Below, piece by piece: positions 27,081 through 52,299 of a stretch of DNA of 54,771 nucleotides (its first letter is position 1; the number at the start of each line of letters is the position of its first letter). Origin of the DNA: Acidobacteriota bacterium (GTDB lineage: Bacteria; Acidobacteriota; HRBIN11); assembly GCA_030550225.1 (NCBI GenBank), contig JAUQPV010000001.1:1-54771 (forward strand), written 5' to 3'. Position numbers and translations under genes: made by a program. The notes under the pieces were generated by a model. That model was not told the DNA's origin. It saw only the letters and a list, made by a program, of their open reading frames with translations, and searched no databases.

Positions 27081-27319
27081 CGTCGCCTCCTCGAATCGAT
27101 GGGAGTGGCCGACGTCGGCCCGGTCAGGGGCCTGAGCCGACGGATGGCCGGAACGGTCCCCCCAGGACGTAGGCGAAATCATTGTATCGGAACCCATGTT
27201 CGATTGCAACCTTTTCCCGAGAGTCCTAAACTTAACCCGAGCTGTAGGCCTGGGGTCGGCGAAGGGCGAAGGGTGAGGAGAGACCGGTCTGTCACGATTC
27301 GCCGTTCGCCATTCTCGGT

Positions 27320-31106: not shown

Positions 31107-32507
31107 ATGCAGTCGATAGCCCTCAAGATTTCTATCCCCATCATATTAAGTATATTTCTATTTTTTGGAATTTTGGGGTATCACTCCTACACGGAACGGC
31201 GGGCGGCGTTCCGACGCCTCGTCGAACAGGACTCTCAGACCGTCCTCCGGGTCGTCGCCCAGGGGATCGCCCTCCTGATGGAGGTCAAATCCCGGGACCA
31301 CATCCTGGAGCTTATGCAGAATGCCCGGGCTGAGATGGGTGCCAGCCGCCTGGAAGCTCGCTCGCCCGACGGACGCTATACCCTCCGGGTATCGGACCCC
31401 GCGGTACCCCCCCAGGGGTCGACCGAGTGGCTCCAGGTGCGAGTGCCTCTACCGGCTCGGGATACCTGCCGCCGATGTCACGCGATGGCGACTCAGACGG
31501 AGGGATATTTAGAGGTCCGACGGAACATCGGTCCCCTGATGGCCATGGCCCGTTCTTGGTACACCCGGGCGAGTCTGACCCACCTTCTGGCATCGATCTT
31601 GCTTAGCTTATCCATCGCCGTGACCGTCCACTGGACCGTCCGGCGACCCCTCCAGCGGTTGATCGGAGCCATGGAACGGGTAGCCCAAGGACATTGGGAC
31701 GTGACCTTACCCATTCAAGGGCAGGACGAGATCGCCTCCCTGGCCCGCCACTTCAACTCGATGTTGGAGCGGCTTCGGGTTTATCAGGAGGAGCGGGAAC
31801 GGGAGCAGCGGGTCAAGCTCCAGCAGGCCGAGCACATGATGTCGGTCGCCGAGATGGCCGCCTCGCTGGCGCATGAGATCAAGAACCCCTTGGCCGGTAT
31901 TCAGTCGGCGTTGACGGTCCTATTTGAGCAGGAGGACCTGCGGCCGGAAGCTCGGGAGGTCTACGAGTCCATTATCCAGGACCTGAGTCGTATTAACCAG
32001 GTCCTGGAGGACCTCTTGCAGTACGCGCGACCCCGGCCCATCGAGTGGACGGCCGTAGACCTGGGGAGCCTGGTCGAGTCGGTCGTCCAGCGGGTTTTCC
32101 CGAGGGTACGGGAAAAGGGCCTCCAGCTTCATACGGACCTGACGGCCGACGTCCCTGTCGTCCAGGGCGACCCCCATCAGCTTCATCAGATGCTGTACAA
32201 TTTACTCCTCAACGCCATCCAGGCGACCGACGAAGGCGGCCGGGTGACGGTCGGTCTTCGGTCCCGTCCGGAGGCCGATGAAGTCGAGCTGTGGGTCGAG
32301 GATACGGGCCACGGAATTCCGCCTGACAAGTTGGACCTCGTCCTCAAGCCTTTCTATTCGACGAAACCGGGCGGGACCGGCTTAGGACTCCCTATTTGTT
32401 TGCGGATCATCGAAAACCATGGGGGGCGGCTCTCGATCGAGTCGGAAGTCGGTCGGGGCTCGACCTTCCGGGTTTACCTCCCCATCCGGGGGGCAGGTCG
32501 TGCATGA
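31107..32507 (+). CDS. sensor histidine kinase with two TM helices, a periplasmic domain carrying one CxxCH, HAMP, HisKA and HATPase domains
   Basis: TM1 is IPIILSIFLFFGILGY. The periplasmic segment contains CRRCH (31467-31481). TM2 is LLASILLSLSIAVTVHW. HAMP segment RRPLQRLIGAMERV...; H-box SLAHEIKNPLAGI; N/G boxes NLLLNAIQAT, DTGHGIP, GGTGLGL. Confidence 0.88.
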   Translation: MQSIALKISIPIILSIFLFFGILGYHSYTERRAAFRRLVEQDSQTVLRVVAQGIALLMEVKSRDHILELMQNARAEMGASRLEARSPDGRYTLRVSDPAVPPQGSTEWLQVRVPLPARDTCRRCHAMATQTEGYLEVRRNIGPLMAMARSWYTRASLTHLLASILLSLSIAVTVHWTVRRPLQRLIGAMERVAQGHWDVTLPIQGQDEIASLARHFNSMLERLRVYQEEREREQRVKLQQAEHMMSVAEMAASLAHEIKNPLAGIQSALTVLFEQEDLRPEAREVYESIIQDLSRINQVLEDLLQYARPRPIEWTAVDLGSLVESVVQRVFPRVREKGLQLHTDLTADVPVVQGDPHQLHQMLYNLLLNAIQATDEGGRVTVGLRSRPEADEVELWVEDTGHGIPPDKLDLVLKPFYSTKPGGTGLGLPICLRIIENHGGRLSIESEVGRGSTFRVYLPIRGAGRA

Positions 32508-32526
32508 CATAGATATTTCGGGAAAG

Positions 32527-33900
<1,374 letters not shown>

Positions 33901-33933
33901 TGTTCGGGATGCGGGATGGGGGGAGGGGTAAGG

Positions 33934-36003
33934 ATGGGCGGTTTTCGGAGAGGGCTCTTTTGGGCGTGGGGGAGCCTCATCGGCGTGGCGGCTTTGGCGT
34001 GGGCTCAAACGCCGCCTTGTCAAACGTGTCATAAGGACGTCCATGTCACGTCCCCGGCCCATGCCGACCTGGACTGTACAGATTGCCACTCCAACGTGAC
34101 GAAGGTCCCCCATCCGCCCAAGCTCTTGAAGCAATTGGGCGGCGACGCTCTCTGTCGGCAATGTCACGACGACGTCGTTCCCCAAGTCGCCGCCAGTGTC
34201 CATGGGCCCGAAACCTGTGGCGACTGTCACGGGCCGGCCCACGAGATCCCGCCCCCCCGATGGACCGTCTGTGGGGACTGTCACGCGGAGGCGACGGAAG
34301 CCTTTCAGGCCAGCTCTCATCAGAAGAGCCTGAACTGTAGCTCTTGCCATGAAGGCGTTCACGCCCTTCGGTCCCCGAAACAACCCGGATCGAGGGTCCA
34401 CCCCTTCCAGCAGATTCAAACCTGTGGGACCTGTCATGCGAAGCCGCCCCAGCTCATCGACGGGTACCTCCAAAGCGTCCACGGCCGGGGCCTGCTCCTG
34501 GCCGGTCTGGTGACGGCGCCGGCCTGTAGCGATTGTCATGGAAGCCATGGTGTCTTTCCGGTCCGGGACGTCCGCTCGACGGTATCGGCCCGAAATGCGC
34601 CCCTCACGTGCGGGCGGTGTCACGTCGGCGTCTTGGACGTGTGGTCGAAAGAGAGCGTCCACGGCCAGCTCTGGCGGGAGGGTCGGACCGGCGGACCGGT
34701 CTGCACGACCTGTCACGGGTCCCACCGGATTCAAGAGCCGAGGGCCGGCATCCAACGCCTGAAGTTTCCCGAGACTTGCGGCGGGTGTCACGGAGAGCGC
34801 TATCACACGTACCGGGACGGGTTCCACGGCCAGGCCACGGGCCTGGGGTTCCTGACGGCGGCCACTTGTTCGGACTGCCATACGCCGCATCAGAACGAAC
34901 CAGCCCGGGACCCGAAGTCATCTGTACATCCGGCGAATCTGACTCGAACCTGCGGTCGATGCCACGGTCCGGTCACGGCCGCCTTTGTGACCTTTGACCC
35001 CCATGCGGACCCCCGGGACCCCCGGAGGAGCCGGCCGGTCTACTACGTATGGCTCTTCATGACGAGTCTGCTGGTGTTCGTCTTCGGATTCTTTGGAATC
35101 CATACCCTCCTCTGGCTTCAGCGATCGGTCGTGGGCGCGCTCCGGGGTGAGTTCCACTCGATCCGACGATGGAAGGACGAGACCGTATGGGTCCGGCGAT
35201 TTGCGCCGGTCCACATGTGGACCCACGTGGCCATCGTCGTTAGCTTCCTGCTCCTGGCCGCCACGGGCCTTCCCCTCAAGTACCACTATACCCGGTGGGG
35301 ACCCGTCCTCGCTTCGTGGCTGGGGGGCGTCGATACGACCCGCCTGCTTCACCGGGTTGGGGCCGTGATCACGTTCGGATACGCCGTCTTCCATCTGGGC
35401 TATATCCTCTACTGGGCCGGCCTCCGGAGAGACTGGGGCATCCTATGGGGCTGGCGGTCGATGACGCCCCGGTGGCAGGACCTCGTCGACCTTTGGCGCA
35501 ACGTACGGTATTTCCTGTACTTGGGTCCCCGACCCCGCCTGGACCGATGGACGTACTGGGAAAAGTTCGACTACTTCGCTGTCTTCTGGGGCGTCGTCAT
35601 CATCGGCTTCTCGGGCCTCTTCTTGTGGCTCCCCAAGTTTTGGACTCGGTTCCTCCCCGGATGGGTCCTCAATGCCGCCTTCGTCGTCCATAGTGACGAG
35701 GCTCTTCTGGCCGTAGGATTCATCTTTATCTTCCACTTCTTCCATAATCATCTCCGGCCGGAGAACTTCCCGCTGGACCCCGTCGTGTTCATCGGGAGCC
35801 TGCCCCTGAAACGATTTCAGGAAGAGCGGCCGGCCGAATACCAGCGCCTGGTCGAGAGCGGCGAGCTGGAGAAGTACCTGGAAGGCCCGCCGTCCAAGTG
35901 TCAGGTCCGCCTGGCTTACATCTTTGGATTTCTGACGCTGACGGTCGGGGTCCTCCTGATTGGTCTGATTCTGGCCACGGCCCTGGGGGCCCTTCGGTCA
36001 TGA
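33934..36003 (+). CDS. 13-CxxCH multihaem cytochrome c fused to a C-terminal polytopic cytochrome b-like membrane domain (CbcL-like architecture)
   Basis: Signal peptide. Thirteen CxxCH motifs: CQTCH, CTDCH, CRQCH, CGDCH x2, CSSCH, CGTCH, CSDCH x2, CGRCH x2, CTTCH, CGGCH. About 6 TM helices follow, with conserved His pairs (HRVGAVITFGYAVFH, VHSDEALLAVGFIFIFHFFHNH), as in FdnI/HydC/Ni-hydrogenase cytochrome b type domains. GGAGGGG lies before the ATG at 33934; an alternative ATG is at 33916. Confidence 0.8.
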   Translation: MGGFRRGLFWAWGSLIGVAALAWAQTPPCQTCHKDVHVTSPAHADLDCTDCHSNVTKVPHPPKLLKQLGGDALCRQCHDDVVPQVAASVHGPETCGDCHGPAHEIPPPRWTVCGDCHAEATEAFQASSHQKSLNCSSCHEGVHALRSPKQPGSRVHPFQQIQTCGTCHAKPPQLIDGYLQSVHGRGLLLAGLVTAPACSDCHGSHGVFPVRDVRSTVSARNAPLTCGRCHVGVLDVWSKESVHGQLWREGRTGGPVCTTCHGSHRIQEPRAGIQRLKFPETCGGCHGERYHTYRDGFHGQATGLGFLTAATCSDCHTPHQNEPARDPKSSVHPANLTRTCGRCHGPVTAAFVTFDPHADPRDPRRSRPVYYVWLFMTSLLVFVFGFFGIHTLLWLQRSVVGALRGEFHSIRRWKDETVWVRRFAPVHMWTHVAIVVSFLLLAATGLPLKYHYTRWGPVLASWLGGVDTTRLLHRVGAVITFGYAVFHLGYILYWAGLRRDWGILWGWRSMTPRWQDLVDLWRNVRYFLYLGPRPRLDRWTYWEKFDYFAVFWGVVIIGFSGLFLWLPKFWTRFLPGWVLNAAFVVHSDEALLAVGFIFIFHFFHNHLRPENFPLDPVVFIGSLPLKRFQEERPAEYQRLVESGELEKYLEGPPSKCQVRLAYIFGFLTLTVGVLLIGLILATALGALRS

Positions 36004-37297: not shown

Positions 37298-40150
37298 CTA
37301 TTCGTGGCACTCCTGACAGACCTTCGGGTCGGGGCGGAGGCGGCCGGCCGCGTGACAGGTCCCGCAGGCCAGGTCTAAGTCCTCGGGACTGGCATGGAGG
37401 CGATGCGGAAACGTGCGTCCGTCGGCCAGCCGGAGGTCGCCCGGCGGTCCGAGGCCGTGACAGTCCTGACAGGCCCGGCGGACTTCCGGGGCGTGGTGGC
37501 AAGGGCCGCAGGCCAGGCCCGGTCGCAGGACCTCGGCGGGTTCCCGGACTTCGTGGGGCCGATGGCAGGTCTCACACGCCAGGGCCTGGACGGTGATGTG
37601 CTTCGCATGGGAAAAGGTATAGCCCCGATAGGGAGCTGTCTGAAGTTCGATCCCCTGGTGACAGTTCATGCAGGAAGACGTATAGGGGACCTGCACCCAA
37701 GCTGGGAGACGGACCGGACGGCCTCGGACGGTCTCTTGGACCTGCCGGTAACTCCAGGCCAACAGGGCCAAGGCATAGTCGGGATTGTGAATCCCGTTAG
37801 CCTGGCGGAGGAATTCAAGGTTCGCCTTTACGTCTTGCAAGACCGGGGCGGCGGGTGCCCAGCGGACGGCCGATGCATAGGCCGTCTCGACGTCCCGCAG
37901 GGCCCGTTCGAGTACGACCTTCCACTGGAGATAGATCTTCCGGTACCGGGTCCCGTGGCAGGCCATACAACTGACTTCGTTGGCCCGCCGGAGGCCACCC
38001 CGGGCCGCGTGTTCGAGGAAGTGACATCCCTCGCAGTCGACGCCCGTCAGGAACATCTTGCTGGGTCGGGGCGGAACGCCCTTCCCGCCGAGGCCGGCGT
38101 ACAGGTCCCGGGTGGGAGCGTGGCCGCTCAAGTGGCATCGCTCGCACGCCGTGGCGGCCGGCGTCAGGGGGAGACGACCATGCTGAATTTCCTGATGGCA
38201 GTCGGTGCACTCGACTTTATGTTCCGTCACGTGCTGATGGTGGAGGTAGGCTTCATCCCCGAACCGGGCCAGTCGTTGCGGCTCGTTGTGACAGGTCAGA
38301 CAGCGCTCCCGGGGGACGGCTCCCTCGCCCCGGATGCTCTTCTGATGGCACCACACGCACTCCATCCCGAAGCGCCGAACGTCGCCGTGGTCGAAGCGGA
38401 CGCCCTGGGCCTCGACGGGTCCGGAGGGCGGAATGTGGCAGAGCTCACATCGGGCGGGTCCGGTGCCCAAGCGTTGGTTCTTGAAGTGGCACAGGAAGCA
38501 CGTCGATTCGGTGACCGTGATGTGAAGGCCCTGGACGATCTGGGAGTGGCAGGACGTACAGCGGAGCCGCATCCCCCGCCGGAGTTCCAGAAGGTGGGGC
38601 GCATGGTCGAAGACGATGTCATGGAAGACTTCCTTTCCTTGAAGCAAACGCCGTTCGTGACACCGCAGGCAACTGGCATCTTCGACCTCGGCCCAGGGGT
38701 TCGGCCCGTAGGTCTGAGTGATGTACTGAGCGGCCATCGAGAGGGCCTCGTACTTCTTCCGGAATTCGGACGTGATCCCCGGAGGGATGTGGCAATCTAC
38801 GCAGGGGACGTTCCGATGGGTCGACGCCTTCCAGGACTGATAGTAGGGTTGCATGACGTGGCAAGAGCCGCAGAAGGCCGGCGTCGAGGTCACCTGCATC
38901 AACAAGAAGACCGTCAACAGGAGACCGCCCAGGCCGACCATCAACCAGAGGGCACCCCATCGGACGCTTCCCCGCTCGTCGGGGGGACCCTCCGGCGGCT
39001 TCTCGCCAGAAAGGCCGGCCCGTCGGATCTCCAAGAGGGCCACCGTCAGGAGGAGGTAAAACCAAAAGGCGATGAGGAGAAACCGTTGGGCCGTCCGATG
39101 ACCCCGCCAACGCTGGACCTCGCTCCGGATCTCACTGGCGATGGAACGGACCTTTCGGGTCTCGGCCTCGATATCCCCGACCTGCAGGCTGTGGACGACC
39201 GGCTGGACGCCGCTCAGGAAGGTCCGAGCCTCTTCCAGCCGCTCCTCCATCGCCCGGGTCGGGACGCCGACGGCCCGGGCCGCCTCGAGGGCCGTCTGGG
39301 CTTCTTGGAGGTCGGCGGTGGCCGTCCTCAGGAGGGTCTGGATCTCGGCGGCGACCTTCATGGGTCGTTGGCCGGTCTCATGGCACTTTCCGCAGACCTC
39401 CACGAGCCGTTCGGGGTTGACCCGGGTGGTCGCATGGTTGTCATGACAGGCCACGCAGGCGGGCAGGCCCCGGCTTAGAAAGGCCCGGGCGTGCGGGCTC
39501 TGGAGGAACATTTCCATGGACCGGGTATGGCACAACCCGCAGACTTCTGAGACTTCCCGAACGCTGGGCGGGGCGGCCCCATGCTTGCCATGGCAAGTCG
39601 CACAGTGAGGCGCCCGGGGATGGCCCGAGGCCAGCGCCTGGAAGTGAACGCTGGCGCGGTACTGGTCCACGACATCGGCCGATAGGCCGTACCGCTCCAT
39701 AAGCTCCTTTTGAGCGTGACACCGACCGCAGGTCTCGGCAACATTCTCTCGATAGACCCGGCTTCGGGGATCTTGGGCCGGTCGGATGTCATGGGTCCCG
39801 TGGCAGTCCGTACAGACGGCGACCCGGGTATCACCTCGGGCCAAGGCCTGCCCATGATACGAACTCTGATAATACAGGTACTGGTCAATAGGTATGTTGA
39901 AGGGCCGCATCCGCTCCGGGTCGCTGTGGCAGTCGGCGCAGAGCCGGGGGATTTGAGACCGCTCGGGCACGCCCCGGAAGTCTTTCCCGTGAGCGGCCTC
40001 CATCTCGAGCGGGCCCTCGACGCCGCCGTGGCAGGCCGTACAGGGCACGCCCTTACGGCTATGGGCATCTTCCGCAAAGCGAGCCTTCAATTCGCTGTGG
40101 CACGTCAGACATGTGGACGCCAGCATGAGGACGAAGACGGCCGCATTCAT
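37298..40150 (-). CDS. giant multihaem cytochrome c with 27 CxxCH: an N-terminal 9-haem domain, a TM hairpin, then a NapC/NirT/NrfH-like segment and further haems (18 CxxCH)
   Basis: The start MNAAVFVLMLASTCLTCH (ATG at 40150) lies just after the cytochrome b stop. The first 355 aa are paralogous to the 11-haem protein (shared blocks GDTRVA.C.DCH, DPRS.VY, VCGLCHT, SPHA.AF). Two TM helices map to about 38891-39085. Next comes TSTPAFCGSCHVMQPYYQSWKASTHRNVPCVDCHIPPG (NapC/NirT-like), then 16 more CxxCH up to the terminal CQECHE. Confidence 0.85.
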   Translation of the reverse strand: MNAAVFVLMLASTCLTCHSELKARFAEDAHSRKGVPCTACHGGVEGPLEMEAAHGKDFRGVPERSQIPRLCADCHSDPERMRPFNIPIDQYLYYQSSYHGQALARGDTRVAVCTDCHGTHDIRPAQDPRSRVYRENVAETCGRCHAQKELMERYGLSADVVDQYRASVHFQALASGHPRAPHCATCHGKHGAAPPSVREVSEVCGLCHTRSMEMFLQSPHARAFLSRGLPACVACHDNHATTRVNPERLVEVCGKCHETGQRPMKVAAEIQTLLRTATADLQEAQTALEAARAVGVPTRAMEERLEEARTFLSGVQPVVHSLQVGDIEAETRKVRSIASEIRSEVQRWRGHRTAQRFLLIAFWFYLLLTVALLEIRRAGLSGEKPPEGPPDERGSVRWGALWLMVGLGGLLLTVFLLMQVTSTPAFCGSCHVMQPYYQSWKASTHRNVPCVDCHIPPGITSEFRKKYEALSMAAQYITQTYGPNPWAEVEDASCLRCHERRLLQGKEVFHDIVFDHAPHLLELRRGMRLRCTSCHSQIVQGLHITVTESTCFLCHFKNQRLGTGPARCELCHIPPSGPVEAQGVRFDHGDVRRFGMECVWCHQKSIRGEGAVPRERCLTCHNEPQRLARFGDEAYLHHQHVTEHKVECTDCHQEIQHGRLPLTPAATACERCHLSGHAPTRDLYAGLGGKGVPPRPSKMFLTGVDCEGCHFLEHAARGGLRRANEVSCMACHGTRYRKIYLQWKVVLERALRDVETAYASAVRWAPAAPVLQDVKANLEFLRQANGIHNPDYALALLAWSYRQVQETVRGRPVRLPAWVQVPYTSSCMNCHQGIELQTAPYRGYTFSHAKHITVQALACETCHRPHEVREPAEVLRPGLACGPCHHAPEVRRACQDCHGLGPPGDLRLADGRTFPHRLHASPEDLDLACGTCHAAGRLRPDPKVCQECHE

Positions 40151-40161
40151 GCCGACCTCGT

Positions 40162-41136
40162 TCAATAATAACTTCCGACCCACGCCAGGGCGATATACCC
40201 CAGCGCCGCCATCAAGGCCCACCACCGGAGGGTTCCCCGCCGCCGATCGTCCAGCCAGGGCAAAAGGGTCCAAAAGGCCAGTAACGCCAGAAAACCCCAT
40301 CCCAGGACCCACCCCGGCGTCCGAGGTTCCAGCCACTGAAGAGGTCGAAAATACCAGGGTGCCCGGGTCACGGGTGGCGGATGCAGGACGTCGGCGACTT
40401 CTGGATGGAGAGGCGGGGCCAAGACGGCCAGGGTCGTCAGGCCGCCGACCCACAGCAGAAGGGCGCTTAGACCCCAGTGGACCCAATCCGGGTAGACCGG
40501 CCGACTCAGACTGGGCCGCCGGAGTCCGGACCGCAGGGAGACATACACATGAGTAAAGGTCAATGCGATGAAAAGCCCGGGCAGGGCCGAAACGTGCAGG
40601 AAATAAAAGCGCGTCAAGGTATCCTGCGTGACGTCGGTCCCGCCGACGAGGAAGGAAAAGAGGGCCCCGAGCCCCGGGAGTCGACGGATCTCTTCCAAGG
40701 CCCGAACCGTCGTCCAGAGGGCCGTCTGGCTCCAAGGCAGGAGGTGACCCGTCACGTCCGAGAGGACCAGCAGGACCAGAAGACCCGTCCCGACGAGCCA
40801 TTGACCCCGAAGGCGCAAGTAGTCCCGCTGGACTAAGATCCCCAGACCATGAAGAACGGCAAGCCCCATCAAGACATAGGCCCCCCAGTGATGGACCGAG
40901 TGGATGACCTCCCCCAAGAAGACCCGATAGCGGATGAGGTTCACGCTCTCGAAGGCCCGTTCGACCGTCGGCCGGTAGTAAAAAGCCAGCAAAGCCCCCG
41001 TGAAGGCCTGGACACCGAAGCCCAGCAGGAGGAGAAGACCCGGGAGGTGATGCCATCCGAAGGCCCACCGGGTCGTCCGCCACGAACGCGGTATCCAGCT
41101 CCGGAAATCGCCGCCTTTCCGCTGCTTGAAAGACAT
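40162..41136 (-). CDS. cytochrome b (bc/b6f-type), copy 2, divergent
   Basis: Bis-His haem ligand pairs VHHWGAYVLMGLAVLH and FLHVSALPGLFIALTFTH; GHLLPWSQ. The Qo-site PEWY position reads APWYFRP. Length 324 aa. Confidence 0.85.
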   Translation of the reverse strand: MSFKQRKGGDFRSWIPRSWRTTRWAFGWHHLPGLLLLLGFGVQAFTGALLAFYYRPTVERAFESVNLIRYRVFLGEVIHSVHHWGAYVLMGLAVLHGLGILVQRDYLRLRGQWLVGTGLLVLLVLSDVTGHLLPWSQTALWTTVRALEEIRRLPGLGALFSFLVGGTDVTQDTLTRFYFLHVSALPGLFIALTFTHVYVSLRSGLRRPSLSRPVYPDWVHWGLSALLLWVGGLTTLAVLAPPLHPEVADVLHPPPVTRAPWYFRPLQWLEPRTPGWVLGWGFLALLAFWTLLPWLDDRRRGTLRWWALMAALGYIALAWVGSYY

Positions 41137-41223: not shown

Positions 41224-41646
41224 CTAAAACCGGATGTATACCTGGCCCTGGACGACCTCAACCGCATATCGCGGGAGAGCGCTGGGCGGCGGACCCTGCA
41301 GGACGTTGCCGCTGAGGTCGAACACGCCCCCGTGGCAGGGGCACAGGATGACGTCCCGTTGGGGCGTCCAGCTCACGCCGCACCGCCGGTGGGTGCATAG
41401 GGCCGAAAAGGCCAGCCACTGGTGTTCATTCCGCCGGATCAGCAGGACGGGTCGGTCGGCGACGAAGACGACCCGACTGCTCCCCGGGGCCAACATGTCG
41501 GCCGGCCCGACCCGATAGCCTGAGGCGCTCGACCCGACATTCTCCCGGGGGGGCCGTAAGAACCGCCACAGGGCGTAAAGCCCGGAACCTACCCACAGCG
41601 CTCCCACCAGTCGAACCAGCCACTCCAGGAAGAGCCGCCGCCTCAT
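41224..41646 (-). CDS. Rieske [2Fe-2S] protein, copy 2
   Basis: CTHRRCGV...CPCHGGVFD cluster-binding boxes. N-terminal MRRRLFLEW anchor, Tat-like. The ATG overlaps the stop of the upstream 11-haem gene (ATGA at 41643-41646). Confidence 0.85.
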   Translation of the reverse strand: MRRRLFLEWLVRLVGALWVGSGLYALWRFLRPPRENVGSSASGYRVGPADMLAPGSSRVVFVADRPVLLIRRNEHQWLAFSALCTHRRCGVSWTPQRDVILCPCHGGVFDLSGNVLQGPPPSALPRYAVEVVQGQVYIRF

Positions 41647-43115
41647 GGCTTCAATCTCTTGTCCCGGGACCGGGCCTCGATCTGCCGGATCTTGAGGTAC
41701 AGGGCGATGACCAAGAGCGTGATCCACAGCGTGGCGAAAGCAAAGCCCTTCCGGCGGAAGTCAAATTCGGCCAAGGCCCGCTGACCTGCCGTTCGGGCTT
41801 GCTCGGCGGTCTGAACGGCCGGCTCGACGACCTTCTGGACCTCGGCGGGGTCCGACGTGTGGACGACCGTCCGGGCCTTCAAGTAGGCGTTGTGGACATC
41901 CCGGAGTTGAAACCAGGCGTCGGCCACGTCCATGCCCTTCTGTTCGGCGGCCGTCAGGAGGCGCCGGGCCTCCTCTTCCAGTATGACCAGACGTCGAATC
42001 GTTTCATACATCATACGGGCCACTTGGGTGCCCTTGTCGTCCATCGAGTGGCACTTTCGGCACATGAAGACAGGGGCCTCGGGCTGGAGCTGGTCGAGGG
42101 ACGTCGTCGGGACCTCGTGATTACCGTGGCAGGCTTCGCACTGCGGGAGGCCCTTCTTTTCGAAGGCGGCCGCGTGGGGACTCTTGCTGAAGTACTCGGC
42201 ATTCAGGGTATGACAGAGGCCGCACACGTGGGAGAGCGTCTGCACGCCAGGCGGCATGGCGCCGTGGTTGCCGTGGCAGTCGTTGCAGGCCGGGGCCCCC
42301 GTGTCGTGTTTCTCCAGGAGGGCCCGGCCGTGGGCCGTCGAAGCGTAGAGGTCGTATTGATTCGTCGGAATCCCGTAAGGCTTCATGTATGCAGGGTCGC
42401 TGTGGCACCGGGCGCACATGATGGGCACGTTGACGGCGTACACGCTGGACCGGGGGTCCTTCGGGGGATAGATGGTATGGGCCGTGTGACAGTCCGAACA
42501 GGTGGCGACCCGGGTGTCACCCTGCTGGAGCCGCTGACCGTGACGGCTCGTCCAATACTTCTCCAGTTGGTCCGTCGGGAGGGCCGGATTAAACTTCCGC
42601 ATGTAGGCAGGGTCGGCATGACATCGAGCGCACAAGAAGACCTCCCGGGTCGGGTAGGTCGGCGACTGGGGGTCCCGGCTGGAGCGAATCTCATGGACGT
42701 CGTGACAACTGACACAGGTCGCCACGTCGGCCTTTCCGTGCACGCTGGTCTCAAAGCGTTGGAACTGGATGGTATCGATCGAACTGGCCCACTGGGCCAT
42801 CCGGGATTCGTTCGCGTGGCAGGCGTTGCAGGTCTGCGTGATCTGAGCGCCCTTGGGAACGCCGATATACCCCTTCTTGGGGTCCATCGCCGCGTCCATA
42901 TCGGCCTGGGTCGGGTCGCCGCCGTGACAGCCGGCGCAGGAGATGCCTTTCTGGAAATGAACGTCATTGACATACTTCTGGGAAGGGGTGTCTTCCAAGA
43001 GCTCCCGATGACAGGTCCGACACTGGTCCTGCGTCTGCGCCTGCCCGGTTTGCAGGCCGCCGCCTAAGACCAACGCCAAGACCCCGACGATGACCCAAAT
43101 GCCAAAGCGCTGCAT
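41643..43115 (-). CDS. 11-CxxCH multihaem cytochrome c with a C-terminal TM anchor
   Basis: MQRFGIWVIVGVLALVLGGG signal peptide. Eleven CxxCH: CRTCH, CAGCH, CNACH, CVSCH, CARCH x2, CSDCH, CNDCH, CGLCH, CEACH, CRKCH. A coiled-coil-like segment is followed by FAFATLWITLLVIALYL. The ORF extension to 43274 runs through the repeat element. Confidence 0.85.
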   Translation of the reverse strand: MQRFGIWVIVGVLALVLGGGLQTGQAQTQDQCRTCHRELLEDTPSQKYVNDVHFQKGISCAGCHGGDPTQADMDAAMDPKKGYIGVPKGAQITQTCNACHANESRMAQWASSIDTIQFQRFETSVHGKADVATCVSCHDVHEIRSSRDPQSPTYPTREVFLCARCHADPAYMRKFNPALPTDQLEKYWTSRHGQRLQQGDTRVATCSDCHTAHTIYPPKDPRSSVYAVNVPIMCARCHSDPAYMKPYGIPTNQYDLYASTAHGRALLEKHDTGAPACNDCHGNHGAMPPGVQTLSHVCGLCHTLNAEYFSKSPHAAAFEKKGLPQCEACHGNHEVPTTSLDQLQPEAPVFMCRKCHSMDDKGTQVARMMYETIRRLVILEEEARRLLTAAEQKGMDVADAWFQLRDVHNAYLKARTVVHTSDPAEVQKVVEPAVQTAEQARTAGQRALAEFDFRRKGFAFATLWITLLVIALYLKIRQIEARSRDKRLKP

Positions 43116-43300
43116 GATTTCGACCCTTCGAGCAATCGGTGTTGGGGGCTGGGTGTTGGGTCCAAGGAGACTACAGACCCCAGACCGAACGGAGTCGTCG
43201 GAATAGCCCGTCTCAGGACGAAGCGAACCTGACCCCCGGAATAGGTCGGTGGTCAGTCGTCCGTGGTCTTTCATACCAAATACCTACCACCCGACATCTC
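43116..43300 (-). repeat. About 180-nt structured repeat element, copy 2 (inverted relative to copy 1)
   Basis: The reverse complement of 43137-43300 aligns with 37118-37295 over the arms and core (see copy 1). A left flank gatttcgacccttcgagcaatcggtg is shared with 50081-50118. Confidence 0.8.
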
Positions 43301-43386: not shown

Positions 43387-44460
43387 CTATGACCGGAAGC
43401 CCCATAGCGTCATCGTAGCAATATAGACAAGCACGATCCATCCGATGAGATGAGCGATTTCATTCCGATACTTGCCGAGCCGCCCCTCCCAGAAGGGCAC
43501 CGTCATCCACAAGAGGCCGCCGAGCGTGAAAAACAAGACACCCACGAACTCCCCCTCCAGGAAGAAGACCTTCGCCGGCAGGATCTTCAGGGTCTGATAC
43601 ATAAACAGAAAGTACCACTCGGGCTTGATCCCTGGCGGCGCCGGCGCAAAGGGGTCGGCCTTCGGACCCAACTCCCACGGATAAAAGACGGCCAAAAAGG
43701 CCAGGACATTCAAAACGATCAGCCACAAGAGGAGGTCCCGGAGCAAGAAGTTCGGAAAGAAAGGCATCCGCCGCTTCTCCGACTCGGGTCGCCCGGCCCA
43801 GGACTCGGGTTCGGCGATGCCCTGCCGCTGGATGAACAGCAGATGGAGGGTCAGCAGGATGGTGAAGATGCCCGGCAGGAGCGCTACATGCAGGCCGAAA
43901 AAGCGGGCCAGGGTCGCCCCGCTGACCTCCTCACCGCCCCGGAGGATTCGGACTAATTCATGACCGATGGCCGGGACCGAGCCGACAATTTCGGTCCCGA
44001 CCCGTGTCGCAAAGAAAGCCAACTGGTTCCAGGGCAGGAGGTACCCCGTGAAGCCGAAAAACAGAGCCAGCACCAGGAGGAGAAAGCCGCTGACCCACGT
44101 GAGCTCCCGGGGCTTTCGATAGGCTCGCGTGAAGTACACGCTAAACATGTGAATGAAGACCGTCAGGATCATCAGGTTGGCGCCCCAACTGTGAATGGAC
44201 CGGATCAGCCATCCGAACCGGACCTGGGACATGATGAAGCGTACGCTCTCGTAGGATGCGTCCTCGCCGACCCGGTAGTACATCAAGAGCAGGATGCCCG
44301 TCGTCACTTGGACCAAAAAAAGGAAGAGGCTGACGCCACCAAAATAGTACCAAATGGTGTGCCGGTGCATGGGCACGTACTTGTGGGACATGAATTCGAC
44401 GAGGGCCTGGAGTTGATATCGCTCGTCCAGCCACCGATAGATGCGCCGCCACATAGTCAC
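43387..44460 (-). CDS. cytochrome b (bc/b6f-type, fused N- and C-terminal parts), copy 1
   Basis: [20 protein letters not shown] and [19 protein letters not shown] haem ligand pairs; GYLLPWNQ; canonical Qo motif PEWYFLF. Length 357 aa. Confidence 0.9.
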
Positions 44461-44724: not shown

Positions 44725-45174
44725 TTAGGCCTCCCGCGTGACGTATACGTCGTCCCCCCGAACGACGACCTTCAGGGGCTCCAGGGGCCGCGGCGGGGGA
44801 CCGGCGATGTTGATACCGTTTAGGTCAAAACGCCCGTTGTGACAGGCGCACCAGATCAACTTCCAGTCCGGCCGGTACTGGACGATGCAGGCCAGATGCG
44901 TACAGGTCGCTGTAAAGGCCTTGAAGTCCCCAAACTCCGTCCGAATGAGGAGTACAGGCTCGTTCCCAAACCGGACGACCCGCCCCGAGTTGGGCTCAAA
45001 GTCGTCGACCTTCCCAACCTTGACGGCCGACAGCCGCGCCTCGGGGACCCGGGGCGGGATGATGTACTGAATAATGGGATATAAGACGGACGAAATCCAA
45101 CCGACGATACCCAGGCCGAGAAGCCAGTCGATGAAGCTTCGTCGGGTCACACCCCTCATCGGCCACCCCCTCAA
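44725..45174 (-). CDS. Rieske [2Fe-2S] protein, copy 1 (Tat signal)
   Basis: Twin-arginine TRRSFIDWLLGLG; cluster boxes CTHLACIV...CACHNGRFD. Confidence 0.88.
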   Translation of the reverse strand: MRGWPMRGVTRRSFIDWLLGLGIVGWISSVLYPIIQYIIPPRVPEARLSAVKVGKVDDFEPNSGRVVRFGNEPVLLIRTEFGDFKAFTATCTHLACIVQYRPDWKLIWCACHNGRFDLNGINIAGPPPRPLEPLKVVVRGDDVYVTREA

Positions 45175-45346: not shown

Positions 45347-45718
45347 TCACTTCTTACCCTTCAGGGAGAACAGCCACTCGGCCAGGGTCTTGAGTTCCGC
45401 CTCCGTCCCCTTAAAGAGGACCTTATGCTTTTTGCCGTCCTTTTCGACCTTCTTCAGGAGGTAGTCCTGAATCCACTGGGCGCTCTCGACCTTCGAACCG
45501 ACGTCCGACAGGTCCGTCACCTTCGCTTCTGCTTCTTCTCCCTCAGCGGCCTTTTTCGCCTCGATGCCCTCGGCCTTGATGCTGTGGCACATCGTGCACT
45601 TGTACTTGGTGAAGAGCTCCTTGCCCGAGGCGGCCTTCTCCTGGGCCGTCGCCGCTCCCGTCAGGCCGACGACCAGGACGGCCGCCCATGCCATCCATGC
45701 CCACGATGCGATCCGCAT
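45347..45718 (-). CDS. monohaem class I cytochrome c (123 aa), tandem copy A
   Basis: Signal peptide MRIASWAWMAWAAVLVVGLTGAATAQ and a single CTMCH. The mature part differs from copy B at one residue by my reading (QDYLL versus QDWLL). Confidence 0.85.
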   Translation of the reverse strand: MRIASWAWMAWAAVLVVGLTGAATAQEKAASGKELFTKYKCTMCHSIKAEGIEAKKAAEGEEAEAKVTDLSDVGSKVESAQWIQDYLLKKVEKDGKKHKVLFKGTEAELKTLAEWLFSLKGKK

Positions 45719-46389: not shown

Positions 46390-46538
46390 GAAATAAAAGA
46401 GCGGCCCCTTCCCGCACAGCCGTGCAGGAAGGGGGCGGGTAGTGGGGGGGGTGCTGGATTCCTTGCCTTCCCGACGACTCCGACGTCTACTCCATCGTCC
46501 CTCGACCAATGCTTCATTTCAACGGGAGTAACGGAGCA

Positions 46539-48869
46539 CTAAAACGTGTAGCTGACCTTCATGTAGAACACGGTGACGTTATAGCCCTTCAGTTGAGTCC
46601 CCATAAGGGTCGCCTCGTTGAACGCACCGGCCGCCGTGACCGGGATATACGCGAAGCCGACGGTACTCAGGTCGTCGTCGTAGCGGAACTTCTCCCAAAG
46701 GGCACCGAGCGTGTACGTCAGACCCCGCGTCACGCTATATCGGAGGCTGGCGTTCAAGACGTGGAACCGGACGTCATCGACCTGGTCGAAACTCACCGGC
46801 TCAAAGGGATTCGCATCGTTGGCCGATGTCCCGACAGGGCTCACGAAGGCGACGGCCCCATCGGACTTCGAGTACGTATAGGACACGTCCGCCGTCAGCT
46901 TCCGCGGCTTCAGCAGAACGGCCTGCAGGCCCCCGCCCAGGCTGTGGAGCTTGTCCTTCTCGTCGGACGTCCAGTTGCTGAGCGAATCTAGACCGGTTTC
47001 CCGCACATAGGGATCGCCGACACCGTTCCGAGCCCACTGCCGCACCTTCTGGCTGTTTTTGTACCCTTCGAAGCTATAGAAGGCAAACAGGCTGACTTGC
47101 TCCGTCAGCGCATAGTCAGCGTCGACGGAATAGACGGTCCGACGGTCGTTCAAGAGTCCAAAGGGGGAATCCCGGAAATTGTCCTTCCCGTAGACGACCG
47201 ATCCCGAGAGAGTCAGCTTGTCCGTAGGAGCCACCGAGACCATCCACAAGACGCTGTCCCGGTCCCGATTCGCCTGGTCGTATTTCCGCAGGAAGGGGAG
47301 TTGAGGCGGGTTCCTGACCTCCTCCTCACCCAGATGAGAGGCGATGAAGGGGATCATAAAGTCGTATTCGCCCCGCCGCCGGGAACGTTCGTAGGCGGCC
47401 CGGAGAGTCAACCAGGACAGGGGTGTCGTGTCGAGGGCAACCTTGAAGATGTTGTCGTCCTGCTCGGCGACCTCCCGGAAGACCCGGTCGGTCCGGATAA
47501 ACCGGTAGCCAAGCGTGAGCGTCGTCGATTTCCAGACGTCCAGACCCAGGTCTACCGAAAAGCTATTCTTCTTAAAGCCGGTCGGGATGTTGGCCGCCGG
47601 TTCGGGCTCCCAGACGGCGTCCACCCAGACGCGGCCCGGGAAGTGAATCTGTTCCGACTTGTTGTCCCAATGGTAGAAGTTGTACTTGAGTTTTAGGCGG
47701 GTGAATCGCAGGGGCTTGGACGTCAGCAACAGCTGAAGCTGGGTAACGTCAACCTTCAGGTCCGCCTGCTGGATGGGCAGACTGGCCTTATCCCAGGCGT
47801 CGAAGGGGACAGGCTCGCCGGGGACCCTGCTCGGGGCACCCTTGCGGATGGCCCGGTTGGTCGTGTAAGGGACTAAGGGGTCGTTCTGGGTCAGGCGCCC
47901 GAAGGAGGCCGTGGCCGAAAGCCGACTCTCGAGGGGGAGGTCCATCAGGACACCGCTGAATGAGAAGTAGTGCGCCCGGTTGTTGGGATACAGGTCGATT
48001 AGACCCGAGGCCGGCCCGGCCAGATAGGACTGGCGATAAGCCGTCGCCGTCGTGCTGTCCGTCGCCCGGTAGGGGTTCGCCCACGTCAGGGTGTCGATGT
48101 TGTTCGCGAAGTCCGAGAAATAGTAGCTGACGTTCACGAAGAGGGGCTTGCGGCCGTATTCGGCGGCGAGACGCACCTGGGTCGTGTCGTAGTCGATAGG
48201 CTCCGGGATTTCGACCACGTTGCCGAAGCCAAAGTTACCACTAAAGGGTCGTGTGCCCTCCCGTTTCTCGAAGCGGGTCTCCGCCGTCAGCCGGAAGGGG
48301 TCCCAGGCGACGACCTTCAGGTCGGCCCGGAAGGTCTTCCGAAAGAGGGCTTCATCGAAGGTCGCGGCCCCGGGTAGGTAGCCCAGGATGCGGCTGACCA
48401 GGTCCGTCGGCGACCGGGACGACTGCAAGTCACTTTGAAGCCGCGGACTCAACTGAAGATTACCAGTCCCGATGCCCGAAAACAGAGACTGGGCGTCAAA
48501 GGCAAACCGGTGGGGGATCTTGTCATAGGTCAGATCCAGCTTGAACCATCCGAACCGCTGACTGGTCAGTTGGAGGAGTTGGTCGTCCCGGGCGATATTC
48601 TTCGCCAGAGCCTCCAAGATGTAGGCACCCCGGCGGTACCGGACCATTACGTCGCCCCACGAGCCTGGCGGAAAGGCTCGGTACTCGGTGAACTTCGCCG
48701 AGTCCCGGAGATGGCTCACGGCGGCGGCTGTAACTTCCGTCTGGACCGTCACCGTGGGCTTGACTTCTTCTTGGAACTTCTCCTTCTCTTGGGCCCACCC
48801 ATAGGACACGATGGACGATAAGAGCAGGATTGTCCCCCCCATGACAAGAATTCTCGCACGTTCCGACAT
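46539..48869 (-). CDS. MtrB/PioB-family outer-membrane beta-barrel (decahaem-associated porin)
   Basis: Signal peptide. N-terminal KFTEYRAF...LDLTYDKIPHRF resembles the MtrB/PioB signature (KFGEY..., YDxIPH). The body is long, with alternating beta-strand character, and ends in an aromatic residue (...YMKVSYTF). It lies immediately downstream of a decahaem gene (12-nt gap). GGAGGGAGG RBS. Confidence 0.8.
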   Translation of the reverse strand: MSERARILVMGGTILLLSSIVSYGWAQEKEKFQEEVKPTVTVQTEVTAAAVSHLRDSAKFTEYRAFPPGSWGDVMVRYRRGAYILEALAKNIARDDQLLQLTSQRFGWFKLDLTYDKIPHRFAFDAQSLFSGIGTGNLQLSPRLQSDLQSSRSPTDLVSRILGYLPGAATFDEALFRKTFRADLKVVAWDPFRLTAETRFEKREGTRPFSGNFGFGNVVEIPEPIDYDTTQVRLAAEYGRKPLFVNVSYYFSDFANNIDTLTWANPYRATDSTTATAYRQSYLAGPASGLIDLYPNNRAHYFSFSGVLMDLPLESRLSATASFGRLTQNDPLVPYTTNRAIRKGAPSRVPGEPVPFDAWDKASLPIQQADLKVDVTQLQLLLTSKPLRFTRLKLKYNFYHWDNKSEQIHFPGRVWVDAVWEPEPAANIPTGFKKNSFSVDLGLDVWKSTTLTLGYRFIRTDRVFREVAEQDDNIFKVALDTTPLSWLTLRAAYERSRRRGEYDFMIPFIASHLGEEEVRNPPQLPFLRKYDQANRDRDSVLWMVSVAPTDKLTLSGSVVYGKDNFRDSPFGLLNDRRTVYSVDADYALTEQVSLFAFYSFEGYKNSQKVRQWARNGVGDPYVRETGLDSLSNWTSDEKDKLHSLGGGLQAVLLKPRKLTADVSYTYSKSDGAVAFVSPVGTSANDANPFEPVSFDQVDDVRFHVLNASLRYSVTRGLTYTLGALWEKFRYDDDLSTVGFAYIPVTAAGAFNEATLMGTQLKGYNVTVFYMKVSYTF

Positions 48870-48881: not shown

Positions 48882-49868
48882 TCAGCGGGCTAATATTTTG
48901 CCGGATGGATGGTTGCTTCCGTGGATTTGGGAATGGCAGTTCAGACAGTTCCGGTAGAAGGCTCGGTTGTTCAACGCTTGATACGCCGAGAGTCCCTGAG
49001 CGGCCTGCTGAGGATTCAAAGCATACAGCCTACCCGGGTGGCCGCTATTGGAATGACAACTCTGGCACAGGAAGGGCGTCTTCGACACCAAAAGCTTGGT
49101 ATGGGACGATCCATGCGGTGTGTGGCAAGTCCCACAGCTTTCCGTCGCCGGGGGGTGCTCCCACAGGAAGGGACCCCGCTTTTCCGCATGACACTCGTAG
49201 CACTTTTCATTGATCGAATTGGCGGCGATTAGCTTGTCGGTCACCGTACCGTGGGGGTTGTGACAGCTCGTGCACTCCATCCGGCCTTCCCGAACGGGAT
49301 GGTGAGAATTCTTGAGAATCTCGGCCTTCACCTGCTGATGACACGTCGTGCAGGTCTCGACCTCCGTCGGCTTGGCCAGATTCTTCGGATAGCCGCTATG
49401 GACGCTGTGGCAGTTCGTGCAGGCCAAATTCCGACTTTCGTGAGGACTCCCATGCCAGAGGGCGACCTTCGTCGTCATCGTCTCATGACAGCTCAGACAG
49501 ACAGCGTTCCGCTCCTCGACCGAGAGCTTCGACTTCGGACCCAGGACCCGAATCGAGACGTTGGCCGATCCCGTCGGAGCGGCGGAGCTGTCCCCATTCC
49601 CGGGGACTTCGCCGCCTTGCTCCTTCACGTGCGCCGCCCCGGGGCCGTGGCAGGTCTCGCACCCGAATTTGGCCTCCGGCGTGCGCTTGTCTTCCTTCAC
49701 GCCGTGGGTGGTCTGGATGTAACTCTGGTAGTACGGTGCGTGACACTCGCGACACGCCTGCGTGCCCACGTAGCCCTTCGCTGGGGGAGCTTCCTGGGCT
49801 GCCGGAACCGACGCCGTGAGGAGGAACCCGACCAGACATCCGATGAGGATGAAAATCTTTGGCTTCAT
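48882..49868 (-). CDS. MtrA/DmsE/PioA/MtoA-family periplasmic decahaem cytochrome c
   Basis: Signal peptide MKPKIFILIGCLVGFLLTASVPAAQ. Exactly 10 CxxCH in about 330 aa: CRECH, CETCH, CLSCH, CTNCH, CTTCH, CTSCH, CYECH, CGTCH, CQSCH, CLNCH. GGAGGGGG lies before the ATG at 49868; an alternative ATG is at 49883. Confidence 0.85.
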   Translation of the reverse strand: MKPKIFILIGCLVGFLLTASVPAAQEAPPAKGYVGTQACRECHAPYYQSYIQTTHGVKEDKRTPEAKFGCETCHGPGAAHVKEQGGEVPGNGDSSAAPTGSANVSIRVLGPKSKLSVEERNAVCLSCHETMTTKVALWHGSPHESRNLACTNCHSVHSGYPKNLAKPTEVETCTTCHQQVKAEILKNSHHPVREGRMECTSCHNPHGTVTDKLIAANSINEKCYECHAEKRGPFLWEHPPATESCGTCHTPHGSSHTKLLVSKTPFLCQSCHSNSGHPGRLYALNPQQAAQGLSAYQALNNRAFYRNCLNCHSQIHGSNHPSGKILAR

Positions 49869-50109
49869 CACCGCCCCCTCCATTCCCTAAAATCGGATGG
49901 TCTCTGTATCCTACAATTTCCGTTCCAAACCCCCTGAAAGTCGGGGTGCCGGGCCGTAGGAAGCGCATCGGGTGGAAATAGGCAGGTCGGCCGATCATGG
50001 CTCATAGCGGATGGCTTAGAGTCCTATGAGCTATGACCTATGAGTGCATCCGAGCCGTTCGGTTCGTGAAAACCCGCATGGATTCGGCTTTTCCGACCCT
50101 TCGAAAAAT

Positions 50110-50471: not shown

Positions 50472-50804
50472 TTACTGACGCCGCAGGAAGGCTACGAGAT
50501 CTCGAATTTCCTGTTCGGTCAAGGAGATGCGGGGCATTGGCGGAAACCCCGGGTTGCGGGGCCGGCGTCCGGTCTGGCGGTAGACGATCTCAGGGTCGGT
50601 GAGCCACAGTTCCAGCATAGTGGCGTCATAGCGGCGGCCGACGCCCCGCAGGTCAGGACCTGCCTTGGGGCCTTGGCCGATCGTGTGACAGTAGGGGCAT
50701 CCCCGCTCCTGAAAGACCCGTGCCCCCCGTCGGGGGTCGCCCGAGGCACATCCGAAGCCCAGGACGACGATCAGACAACCCAGGCTCCAAGCCCGTCGCC
50801 CCAT
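50472..50804 (-). CDS. monohaem cytochrome c, probable lipoprotein
   Basis: MGRRAWSLGCLIVVLGFGCASG has a lipobox-like LGFGC. It has one CPYCH and a distal PPMP Met-ligand region. The ORF extension to 50855 reads through an octamer-repeat arm. Confidence 0.75.
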   Translation of the reverse strand: MGRRAWSLGCLIVVLGFGCASGDPRRGARVFQERGCPYCHTIGQGPKAGPDLRGVGRRYDATMLELWLTDPEIVYRQTGRRPRNPGFPPMPRISLTEQEIRDLVAFLRRQ

Positions 50805-50816
50805 TTGGTTCCTCAG

Positions 50817-50977
50817 TTTGGGAATTCGGCATCCGGCAGTTCGGGAGTTCGGCAATTCGGCAATTTGGGAATTCAGCCCTGCGGGGGTTTGATTCGGCCG
50901 TGGCCAGATATACTTGCCTTGACCGTAGGTCCGGCTGATCTCTACCCCTCTCTATCCCGGACTGCCGAACTCCCGAA
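50817..50977. repeat. Inverted repeat with tandem-octamer arms (TTCGGCAG/CTGCCGAA type)
   Basis: Left arm 50817-50876 is tttgggaattcggcatccggcagttcgggagttcggcaattcggcaatttgggaattcag. The right arm 50956-50977 (cccggactgccgaactcccgaa) is shorter. It lies in the divergent cytochrome c / hydrogenase spacer. Confidence 0.75.
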
Positions 50978-52287: not shown

Positions 52288-52299
52288 AGGAGGGGGATC

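Follow-up and report, generated by a model that had tools for sequence, protein, structure and literature searches.

Two cytochromes of the NapC/NirT type, ImoA and CymA, work with MtoAB or MtrAB conduits and with monohaem cytochromes (PMC13390432, PMC6295460). In the Mto pathway of Sideroxydans, MtoA and MtoB are accompanied by the monohaem cytochromes MtoD and PmcA and by the NapC/NirT-type inner-membrane protein ImoA (PMC13390432). A different arrangement is found in Geobacter sulfurreducens, where the extHIJKLMNOPQS (Cbc6) cluster combines a Rieske protein and a cytochrome b with 10-12-haem cytochromes and a porin-like protein of the outer membrane; the mechanism of this cluster is uncharacterised (PMC5877670). 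The connection of bc-type complexes to extracellular electron transfer is an unsettled question, of which Ext/Cbc6 is one example. Fusion and fission of haem modules are also a known theme in multihaem cytochromes (PMC11492766). Here we describe the gene at positions 37298-40150 of a 54,771-nucleotide stretch of Acidobacteriota DNA (contig JAUQPV010000001.1; "the window"), which encodes a protein with 27 CxxCH haem-binding motifs. We conclude that two adjacent genes, coupled in translation, were genuinely fused in frame here and that this fusion is specific to the lineage.

The window comes from HRBIN11, which has been treated as a class of Acidobacteriota (PMC11778308) and was presumably named after the HR11 genome bin. 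The HR11 assembly derives from a geothermal-stream mat enriched at 65-70 °C and was assigned to "Fischerbacteria". It was proposed to be an Fe(II)-oxidising autotroph on the basis of Cyc2 and RuBisCO, and several nitrogen-cycle genes were reported from its genome (PMC5877337).

A genuine fusion of two widespread genes

A single open reading frame (ORF) covers 37298-40150, from an ATG at 40150 to the stop codon at 37298-37300, and encodes 950 amino acids; all coordinates are those of the window and lie on the reverse strand unless the forward strand is named. The gene starts 11 nt past the TGA of an upstream cytochrome b gene (cytochrome b 2) and is preceded by a GAGG ribosome-binding site. Read-through from cytochrome b 2 was ruled out, as the two frames differ. 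All 54 cysteines of the product fall inside the 27 CxxCH motifs, compared with a mean of 0.18 motifs (maximum 3) in shuffles of the same residues, and neither CxxCK nor any other atypical haem motif is present. GC content by codon position (0.68/0.49/0.79, in a genome of 65% GC) indicates that the ORF is a real gene, and we read a 694-residue ORF on the opposite strand (37394-39478) as a shadow ORF. Both the ORF and the motif count thus agree with an earlier note on this DNA, which had described a single ORF with 27 CxxCH motifs here.

The 90%-identity cluster of the protein contains five full-length members, all from different assemblies, all fused and 95-99% identical: the copy in the window, GBC83849.1 of "bacterium HR11" (on a 398-kb contig) and three from Logan assemblies of public sequencing runs. 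The 27 motifs and the same hairpin of two membrane helices are found in each of the five. Two alleles of the linker within this hairpin, GEKPPEGPPDERGS and GEKPPPEGPSDERGS, differ at the DNA level by one in-frame 3-nt indel, which is the only indel across 2.85 kb. The window copy and one other (L001) are separated by 183 substitutions, 124 of which (68%) are at third codon positions. The ratio of nonsynonymous to synonymous substitution rates (dN/dS; Nei-Gojobori, against L001) was 0.12 over the whole gene and stayed <0.2 in every region, with 0.17 in the hairpin and its linker and 0.08 in the NrfH-like head described below.

These data bear on the suspicion that two distinct genes were run together into one long ORF by a fault of assembly or sequencing, or by a recent pseudogene-like frameshift. 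Such an origin would agree with the state of the halves in every relative outside this lineage, where they are separate genes, and with their differing frames, which one small indel could join. It would also agree with the rarity of the arrangement: an exhaustive phmmer search of 1.84 billion representatives returned no second protein matching both halves, and the full-length matches among 5.8 billion clustered proteins came from this cluster only. However, assembly artefact, frameshift and decaying pseudogene all fail to fit five independently assembled fused copies (NCBI and Logan) that keep every haem motif, linker alleles exactly 3 nt apart, a low dN/dS that extends to the hairpin and linker, and differences concentrated at third positions, and we give this explanation hardly any credence. 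The earlier note had likewise raised a stop or frameshift in the hairpin region as the sign of two genes; neither was found, and the fused ORF is shared by five independent assemblies under purifying selection.

The long matches P0273, P0353, P0377, P0262, P0280, P0326, P0291 and P0381 were considered as further fusions and rejected, as their architectures differ. P0273, P0353 and P0377 (~1320-1440 residues) consist of an ~860-residue polytopic membrane domain of unknown family and a multihaem domain with an NrfH-like head that resembles the C-terminal half of the fused protein, and so represent a different architecture within its family.

Relatives of each half are abundant as separate proteins. 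At 50% identity, 907 clusters match the fused protein at E <= 1e-30. In the search of 5.8 billion clustered proteins, about 1,500 further matches were proteins of 550-620 residues spanning the C-terminal 58%, and a search with residues 1-395 returned more than 2,700 proteins, mostly of 380-440 residues. The nearest unfused relative lies on a Joint Genome Institute (JGI) metagenome contig (L002), where a 9-haem gene of 382 residues (262-1410; 44% identity to residues 5-377) is followed by an 18-haem gene of 552 residues (1407-3065; 57% identity to residues 396-950). We refer to these two types of gene, and to the corresponding halves of the fused protein, as N and C. A "cytochrome c3 family protein" of Blastocatellia (P0006) is another stand-alone 18-haem homologue.

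The stop codon of N and the start codon of C overlap by 4 nt as ATGA in all three junctions read at the DNA level (L002, L003 and L004). Because the frames of N and C differ, the fusion required both the loss of the stop codon and a shift of frame, and the product gained a Pro/Glu-rich linker stretch of about 10-12 residues. The stand-alone N protein ends in a basic tail (...EARRRVRSL*) and the stand-alone C protein begins with a basic head (MRRIRW...); the former is predicted to end, and the latter to begin, in the cytoplasm.

N directly precedes C in all nine related loci examined (L002-L007 and L013-L015), which are a sample and not a census: one contig scan with one sequence gave 10 loci, 5 of them informative. 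The order Rieske, cytochrome b, N, C was observed in L003, L005, L006, L007, L013, L014 and L015, which span several phyla. By source, L003 is from an uncultured bacterium, L004 from WOR-3, L005 from Polarisedimenticolia, L006 from "Deltaproteobacteria", L007 from Gemmatimonadales and L013 from Blastocatellia; the metagenome-assembled genomes (MAGs) carrying the module are assigned to Acidobacteriota, Gemmatimonadales, WOR-3 and "Deltaproteobacteria". L002 begins within the apparent end of a cytochrome b gene and L004 within N, so that their upstream genes lie beyond the contig. Wherever the upstream region is visible, the stand-alone N gene follows Rieske and cytochrome b genes, in line with the proposal in the earlier note that the N-terminal part is associated with a bc complex.

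A second kind of fusion was found in L015, where P0195 (692 residues; 7990-10068 of that contig) joins cytochrome b to a 9-haem N-type cytochrome. A Rieske gene precedes it, and an NrfH-headed 18-haem C gene follows with a 4-nt overlap. Gene fusions strongly predict physical interaction. The N::C fusion, read as a "Rosetta stone", indicates that separate N and C proteins elsewhere most likely sit in one complex, and the b::N fusion ties both to cytochrome b as well. We infer that these two independent fusions, which chain cytochrome b, N and C, are a signature of subunits of one complex, and they lead us to predict a single membrane complex of cytochrome b, the 9-haem subunit and the NrfH-type 18-haem subunit. 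The impression that the domain logic of the fused protein is unusual holds in part: the covalent fusion is rare, whereas the pairing of a bc-type complex with an NrfH-headed 18-haem protein is widespread as adjacent genes.

Domain structure and topology of the 27-haem protein

Hydropathy analysis gave two strongly hydrophobic membrane helices of 19-23 residues, TM1 (residues 355-377, 39020-39088, also placed by alignments) and TM2 (residues 398-422, 38885-38959). Together they occupy 38885-39088, close to the range of about 38891-39085 first proposed for two transmembrane segments. TM1 is the counterpart of the anchor at the C-terminus of stand-alone 9-haem proteins and of a neighbouring 11-haem cytochrome. 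TM2 aligns with the membrane helix of NrfH and is the counterpart of the signal-anchor helix with which stand-alone NrfH-headed proteins begin. A weak hydrophobic segment of ~13 residues at the N-terminus, MNAAVFVLMLAST (40112-40150), is presumed to be the export signal. It is free of basic residues, and residue 14 is already the first haem cysteine. Close relatives have an equally short N-terminal signal, and in L015 the position of this signal is joined directly to the C-terminus of cytochrome b.

The two helices are connected by a linker predicted to be cytoplasmic, RAGLSGEKPPEGPPDERGSV (residues 378-397, 38960-39019), which is the fusion junction; the junction region of the fused protein reads LLEIRRAGLSGEKPPEGPPDERGSVR. 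The earlier note had called this a short basic loop. It is short (20 residues) and has Arg and Lys beside both helices, whose cytoplasmic ends carry R377 and R378 on one side and R394 and R398 on the other, but its centre is acidic and Pro-rich, and residues 375-398 include five basic and five acidic residues. Both haem domains must be periplasmic, because haem c is attached in the periplasm, and the two intervening helices allow the periplasmic placement that had been predicted for them. Since the stand-alone N protein would end, and the stand-alone C protein begin, in the cytoplasm, joining them through two membrane helices was topologically cost-free. We also considered an in-frame internal start that would yield a separate C protein; by inspection, only Leu403 and Met404 lie near the junction, both inside TM2, and this candidate was rejected.

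The N module comprises a haem domain with nine CxxCH motifs (residues 14-257, 39380-40111) and a helical stalk (residues 262-354, 39089-39367). Residues 24-377 align with residues 173-531 of the 11-haem neighbour (41643-43274) at 36% identity (E = 7e-70) with the membrane helices in register, which substantiates the suspected paralogy between the two. The two halves were modelled separately with AlphaFold2 (AF2), from alignments A2 (C) and A3 (N). A further MAFFT alignment (A1) of the full protein with both half-length sets misplaced the N homologues (~19% apparent identity) and was not used for structure prediction. In A3 (120 sequences), most residues of the nine motifs are invariant, the first motif nearly so; eight further His are invariant and one more is nearly so, and 115 of the 120 sequences have exactly nine CxxCH. 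The N-module model (predicted local distance difference test, pLDDT, 92; predicted template-modelling score, pTM, 0.81) shows a compact haem domain at residues 10-255 and three long helices (residues 262-293, 299-319 and 324-381), the last of which runs straight into TM1. A Foldseek search with this model gave no significant match in the PDB, and the profile search picked up NrfA and octahaem nitrite reductases over short local stretches only. Residues 1-377 have the three traits expected of a cytochrome c subunit in a Rieske/cytochrome b complex: a gene position directly after the Rieske and cytochrome b genes, a periplasmic haem domain and a C-terminal anchor.

The C module begins with TM2 and a tetrahaem head (residues 423-545, 38516-38884) with haem motifs at residues 427, 450, 494 and 531, and continues in a further 14-haem array (residues 546-950, 37301-38515) that includes a helical bundle at about residues 725-810. 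One N-terminal membrane helix followed by four CxxCH, as in residues 398-545, is the layout of the NapC/NirT family. PF03264 (NapC/NirT) matches residues 407-539 over model positions 17-168 of 174 with 46.1 bits (gathering score 24.1), so that CGSCH (residue 427) and CVDCH (residue 450) sit in a NapC/NirT context. The 23-residue spacing between these two motifs is identical to that in NrfH, and the NrfH profile TIGR03153 matches the head at E = 5e-16. Among PDB sequences, phmmer ranked D. vulgaris NrfH (2j7a_C) first (E = 1e-10), with the membrane helix aligned and CGSCHVM (residues 427-433) placed opposite CTSCHIM. Foldseek with the C-module model (pLDDT 78) ranked the NrfH chains 2j7a_C and 2vr0_F first and second (probability 1.00; target TM-score 0.51-0.59; 138-150 aligned columns of a 145-146-residue target). 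The resemblance of the middle segment to NapC/NirT proteins, proposed initially from its motifs, is therefore significant by profile, by the sequences of solved structures and by predicted fold. Outside the head, similarities were weak: residues 605-813 resemble an uncharacterised PDB chain, 6i5b_A (E = 8e-6), and in fold the model resembled 6qvm_A, an undecahaem S-layer cytochrome (probability 0.69).

On its sequence, the head is best classified as a NapC/NirT-family member of NrfH type and not as an NrfH, NapC or TorC equivalog, because its scores fall far below the respective cut-offs and it has no NrfA partner; no NrfA-like gene was found among the neighbours of the 27-haem gene. The TorC models NF011606 and TIGR02162 scored 41.8 bits (cut-off 455) and 34.6 bits (cut-off 478), with the match confined to the N-terminal NapC-like part. 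The copy from "bacterium HR11", GBC83849.1 (P0122), is labelled "Cytochrome c-type protein TorC". Because the protein has 27 haem motifs rather than 5 and the TorC models score so low, this name is a misannotation and needs correcting.

The head is the most conserved part of the C family. In alignment A2 (120 homologues, ~48% identical overall), all 18 motifs are invariant, as are P424, F426, C427, G428, C430, H431, M433, S439, W440, H445, E462, K465, K466, E468, A469, M472 and Y476. In NrfH, haem 1 at the quinol site has the Met of CxxCHxM as a ligand, and quinol oxidation in the family requires Lys82. The Met is matched here by M433, and Lys465/Lys466 fall within two positions of Lys82, depending on gap placement, with the invariant Glu468 nearby; together with Met472 and Tyr476, this Lys pair and Glu belong to a helix at the membrane surface. 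The invariant residues suggest that the head could react with quinone independently of the bc complex.

Proposed function and genomic setting

We consider it moderately probable that the 27-haem protein serves a Rieske/cytochrome b complex (complex 2, encoded directly upstream) as its cytochrome c subunit, covalently joined to an NrfH-type quinone module, with a shared haem chain leading to periplasmic carriers and an MtrAB-type conduit. In such a protein, the short N-terminal signal would export the 9-haem domain, the stalk would lead into TM1 and thereby across to the cytoplasm, and the 20-residue loop would return through TM2, the former NrfH-type signal anchor. The N half would be the equivalent of cytochrome c1 or f and exchange electrons with the Rieske cluster in either direction, while the C half would bear a second, NrfH-type quinol/quinone site at the membrane surface beside haem 1. 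Both halves would feed one chain of up to 27 haems, which would link the quinone pool to periplasmic monohaem cytochromes and an MtrA/MtrB-type outer-membrane conduit. The result would be extracellular electron transfer, with electrons leaving for Fe(III)/Mn(IV) or entering from Fe(II). The direction, H2-driven Fe(III)/Mn(IV) reduction or Fe(II) oxidation, is beyond what the sequence can tell.

Several observations weigh against this proposal. No clear equivalent of NrfH Asp89 is present (HMMER places Gln475 opposite it), and the NrfH equivalog model TIGR03153 reaches 59.1 bits against a cut-off of 134.2, so that a quinol site can be called plausible rather than proven. For an export signal, the N-terminal segment is unusually short, and it carries no charge. 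Nor is there an obvious energetic reason to place a bc-type Qo/Qi machine and another quinol dehydrogenase on one wire; options for pairing a Q-cycle machine with an NrfH-type site include switching between routes according to potential and reverse operation during Fe(II) oxidation. At 46405-46434, between the mtrB-like gene and the downstream monohaem cytochrome c gene, a strong 13-bp GC-rich hairpin with a T-run could be a terminator or attenuator that divides the locus into two transcription units, so that the link of the 27-haem protein to the outer-membrane conduit may be one of neighbourhood only. MtrB-like genes were not detected beside the module in L003-L007. The partners, cofactors and activity of the protein are inferred, as is the passage of electrons among the Rieske cluster, N, C and MtrA.

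The lack of a clear Asp89 equivalent and the NrfH and NapC equivalog scores, far under their cut-offs, would also be expected if the fusion were real and the head a mere anchor or haem scaffold that does not react with quinone, in which case the C half would simply lengthen the wire of the Rieske/cytochrome b complex across the periplasm. The bc complex already provides a quinol site, and the 14 extra haems with their helical bundle suggest a long conduit. However, it is the membrane-proximal head that is most conserved, with the set from P424 to Y476 invariant in 120 sequences that are only ~48% identical, and this set includes the haem-1-ligating Met of NrfH and a Lys at or next to the Lys82 position. 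We therefore think an anchor-only role unlikely and prefer a head that carries a quinone site.

Cytochrome b 2 (40162-41136, 324 residues, PF00033) has the four haem-ligand His. Its Qo motif is APWY instead of PEWY and lacks the Glu; its homologues have AVWY in L002 and PPWY in L015, which suggests that this type of cytochrome b may form a distinct clade tied to the N/C module. Rieske protein 2 (41224-41646; CTHRRC and CPCHGG) is likely to start at ATG 41646, where it overlaps the stop of the 11-haem gene as ATGA (41643-41646); the GTG at 41727 given by the ORF finder is probably too far upstream. The 11-haem membrane-anchored cytochrome (41643-43274; 11 CxxCH and a C-terminal helix), the paralogue of the N module, belongs to a second set with cytochrome b 1 (43387-44460, 357 residues, PEWY) and Rieske protein 1 (44725-45174, identified by profile and motifs). 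In both Rieske proteins, CPCHGG or CACHNG is followed by Phe. Both lack the Ser and Tyr to which the Rieske proteins of high-potential bc1 complexes owe their raised cluster potential. This would presumably fit low-potential, menaquinol-type complexes.

Beyond this set lie a monohaem class I cytochrome c (45347-45718, 123 residues), an MtrB/PioB-family outer-membrane porin (46539-48869, 776 residues; PF11854 E = 2e-99; TIGR03509 260 bits, cut-off 240), an MtrA/DmsE-family decahaem cytochrome (48882-49883, 333 residues, 10 CxxCH; TIGR03508 274 bits, cut-off 192.2) and, upstream of the MtrA-like gene, another monohaem cytochrome c (50472-50855). No MtrC-like gene was seen in the window. On the forward strand (31107-36003), genes of a two-component system, a histidine kinase with a sigma-54 response regulator, lead up to the gene for a CbcL-like protein (33916-36003), in which 13 CxxCH are joined to a membrane domain of the cytochrome b561 type. 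A membrane-bound NiFe hydrogenase (small, large and b-type cytochrome subunits; 51139-54738, forward strand) is divergent from the cytochrome locus. A promoter and terminator scan of the region gave no more sites than shuffled sequence. Further away, 25971-27209 encodes a fructose-1,6-bisphosphatase of PF01950, which we take to be the archaeal/thermophile bifunctional aldolase/phosphatase type and which would fit a thermophilic autotroph.

Parts of this setting recur in other loci. As in the window, L005, L013 and L014 have a second Rieske/cytochrome b/multihaem set together with a CbcL-like gene, which lies between or beside the two Rieske/cytochrome b sets. L013 also encodes an MtrA-like decahaem cytochrome, an adjacent 702-residue candidate porin and two monohaem cytochromes c.

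The gene content of the window also bears on whether the 27-haem protein might serve a periplasmic reductase of nitrite, hydroxylamine or sulfur compounds, as donor or catalytic part, and not extracellular electron transfer. NrfH is its closest solved relative, parts of both modules are weakly similar to NrfA and octahaem nitrite reductases, and several nitrogen-cycle genes have been reported for HR11 (PMC5877337). Elsewhere in the window, a cytochrome P460 family protein (14479-14970, forward strand; PF16694 E = 7e-38) may be relevant to hydroxylamine or NO chemistry. However, no NrfA-like gene is adjacent, the protein lacks CxxCK or another atypical motif, and its invariant His and Met suffice to ligate all haems. 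The conserved neighbours are Rieske/cytochrome b and CbcL-like genes, and MtrA-like cytochromes occur with a porin in the window and with a candidate porin in L013. A reductase role thus appears quite improbable to us, and a link between the quinone pool and extracellular electron transfer remains the reading we prefer.

More tentatively, the four-gene module as a whole may be a previously unrecognised respiratory complex with two quinone-reactive sites (Qo/Qi and NrfH-type) on one multihaem chain, an idea that we regard as possible though doubtful. If it were true, a cell could take either an energy-conserving or a non-conserving route, depending on the potential of its extracellular partner; alternatively, the bc part could work backwards during Fe(II) oxidation while quinone is reduced by the NrfH part. 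The fusion in the HR11 lineage and the cytochrome b::N fusion in L015 would then be natural evidence for one complex.

Comparison with known systems

A search of the literature, limited to what is searchable and with most subscription journals outside it, returned no description of a Rieske/cytochrome b module with an NrfH-headed 18-haem subunit. The conserved four-gene module is more interesting than the fusion that exposes it, and the fused sequence is already public. The fused protein nevertheless offers a defined single-polypeptide target for expression, cryo-electron microscopy and spectro-electrochemistry, and its origin in a thermophile favours stability. Compared with its stand-alone 9- and 18-haem homologues, it shows no difference in haem counts, in membrane helices or in the Rieske and cytochrome b genes upstream, whereas the homologues are two polypeptides from ATGA-overlapping genes and the fused protein is one polypeptide with an added linker of ~18 residues.

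NrfH of D. vulgaris (2J7A/2VR0) and the wider NapC/NirT family, with CymA, ImoA, NapC and TorC, share with the C half a membrane helix followed by four close CxxCH, a CxxCHxM motif corresponding to Met49 of NrfH, and a Lys near Lys82. Unlike in NrfH, 14 more haems follow the head here in the same chain and, in this lineage, a 9-haem protein and another membrane helix come before it. Nor is there an NrfA partner or a clear Asp89; C genes instead belong to loci in which Rieske and cytochrome b genes come first wherever the upstream region is visible.

CbcL/MtrH/MtoC and ImcH resemble the 27-haem protein in their presumed role as inner-membrane multihaem links from the quinone pool to periplasmic carriers (PMC6295460), and the CbcL-like gene belongs to the same supercluster as the module. 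Unlike CbcL, the 27-haem protein lacks a b-type haem membrane domain, which the product of the gene at 33916-36003 has; it has no PF01292 match and two membrane helices only. The MtrA/DmsE model TIGR03508 scored 77.7 bits on it, below the cut-off of 192.2. The whole protein is thus neither MtrA/DmsE-like nor CbcL-like.

The Ext/Cbc6 cluster is alike in having a Rieske/cytochrome b set inside a porin-cytochrome cluster, and the ExtP model gives scores under its cut-off for cytochrome b 1 as well as cytochrome b 2. In contrast to the locus described here, the Ext cluster has no NapC/NirT-type subunit, and no model of an Ext cytochrome matched the 27-haem protein. As for ImoA and CymA, the genomic context of the 27-haem gene suggests that its product may work with a similar conduit and monohaem cytochrome partners. 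In our comparison, the Mto pathway of Sideroxydans is the known system that comes closest in its logic.

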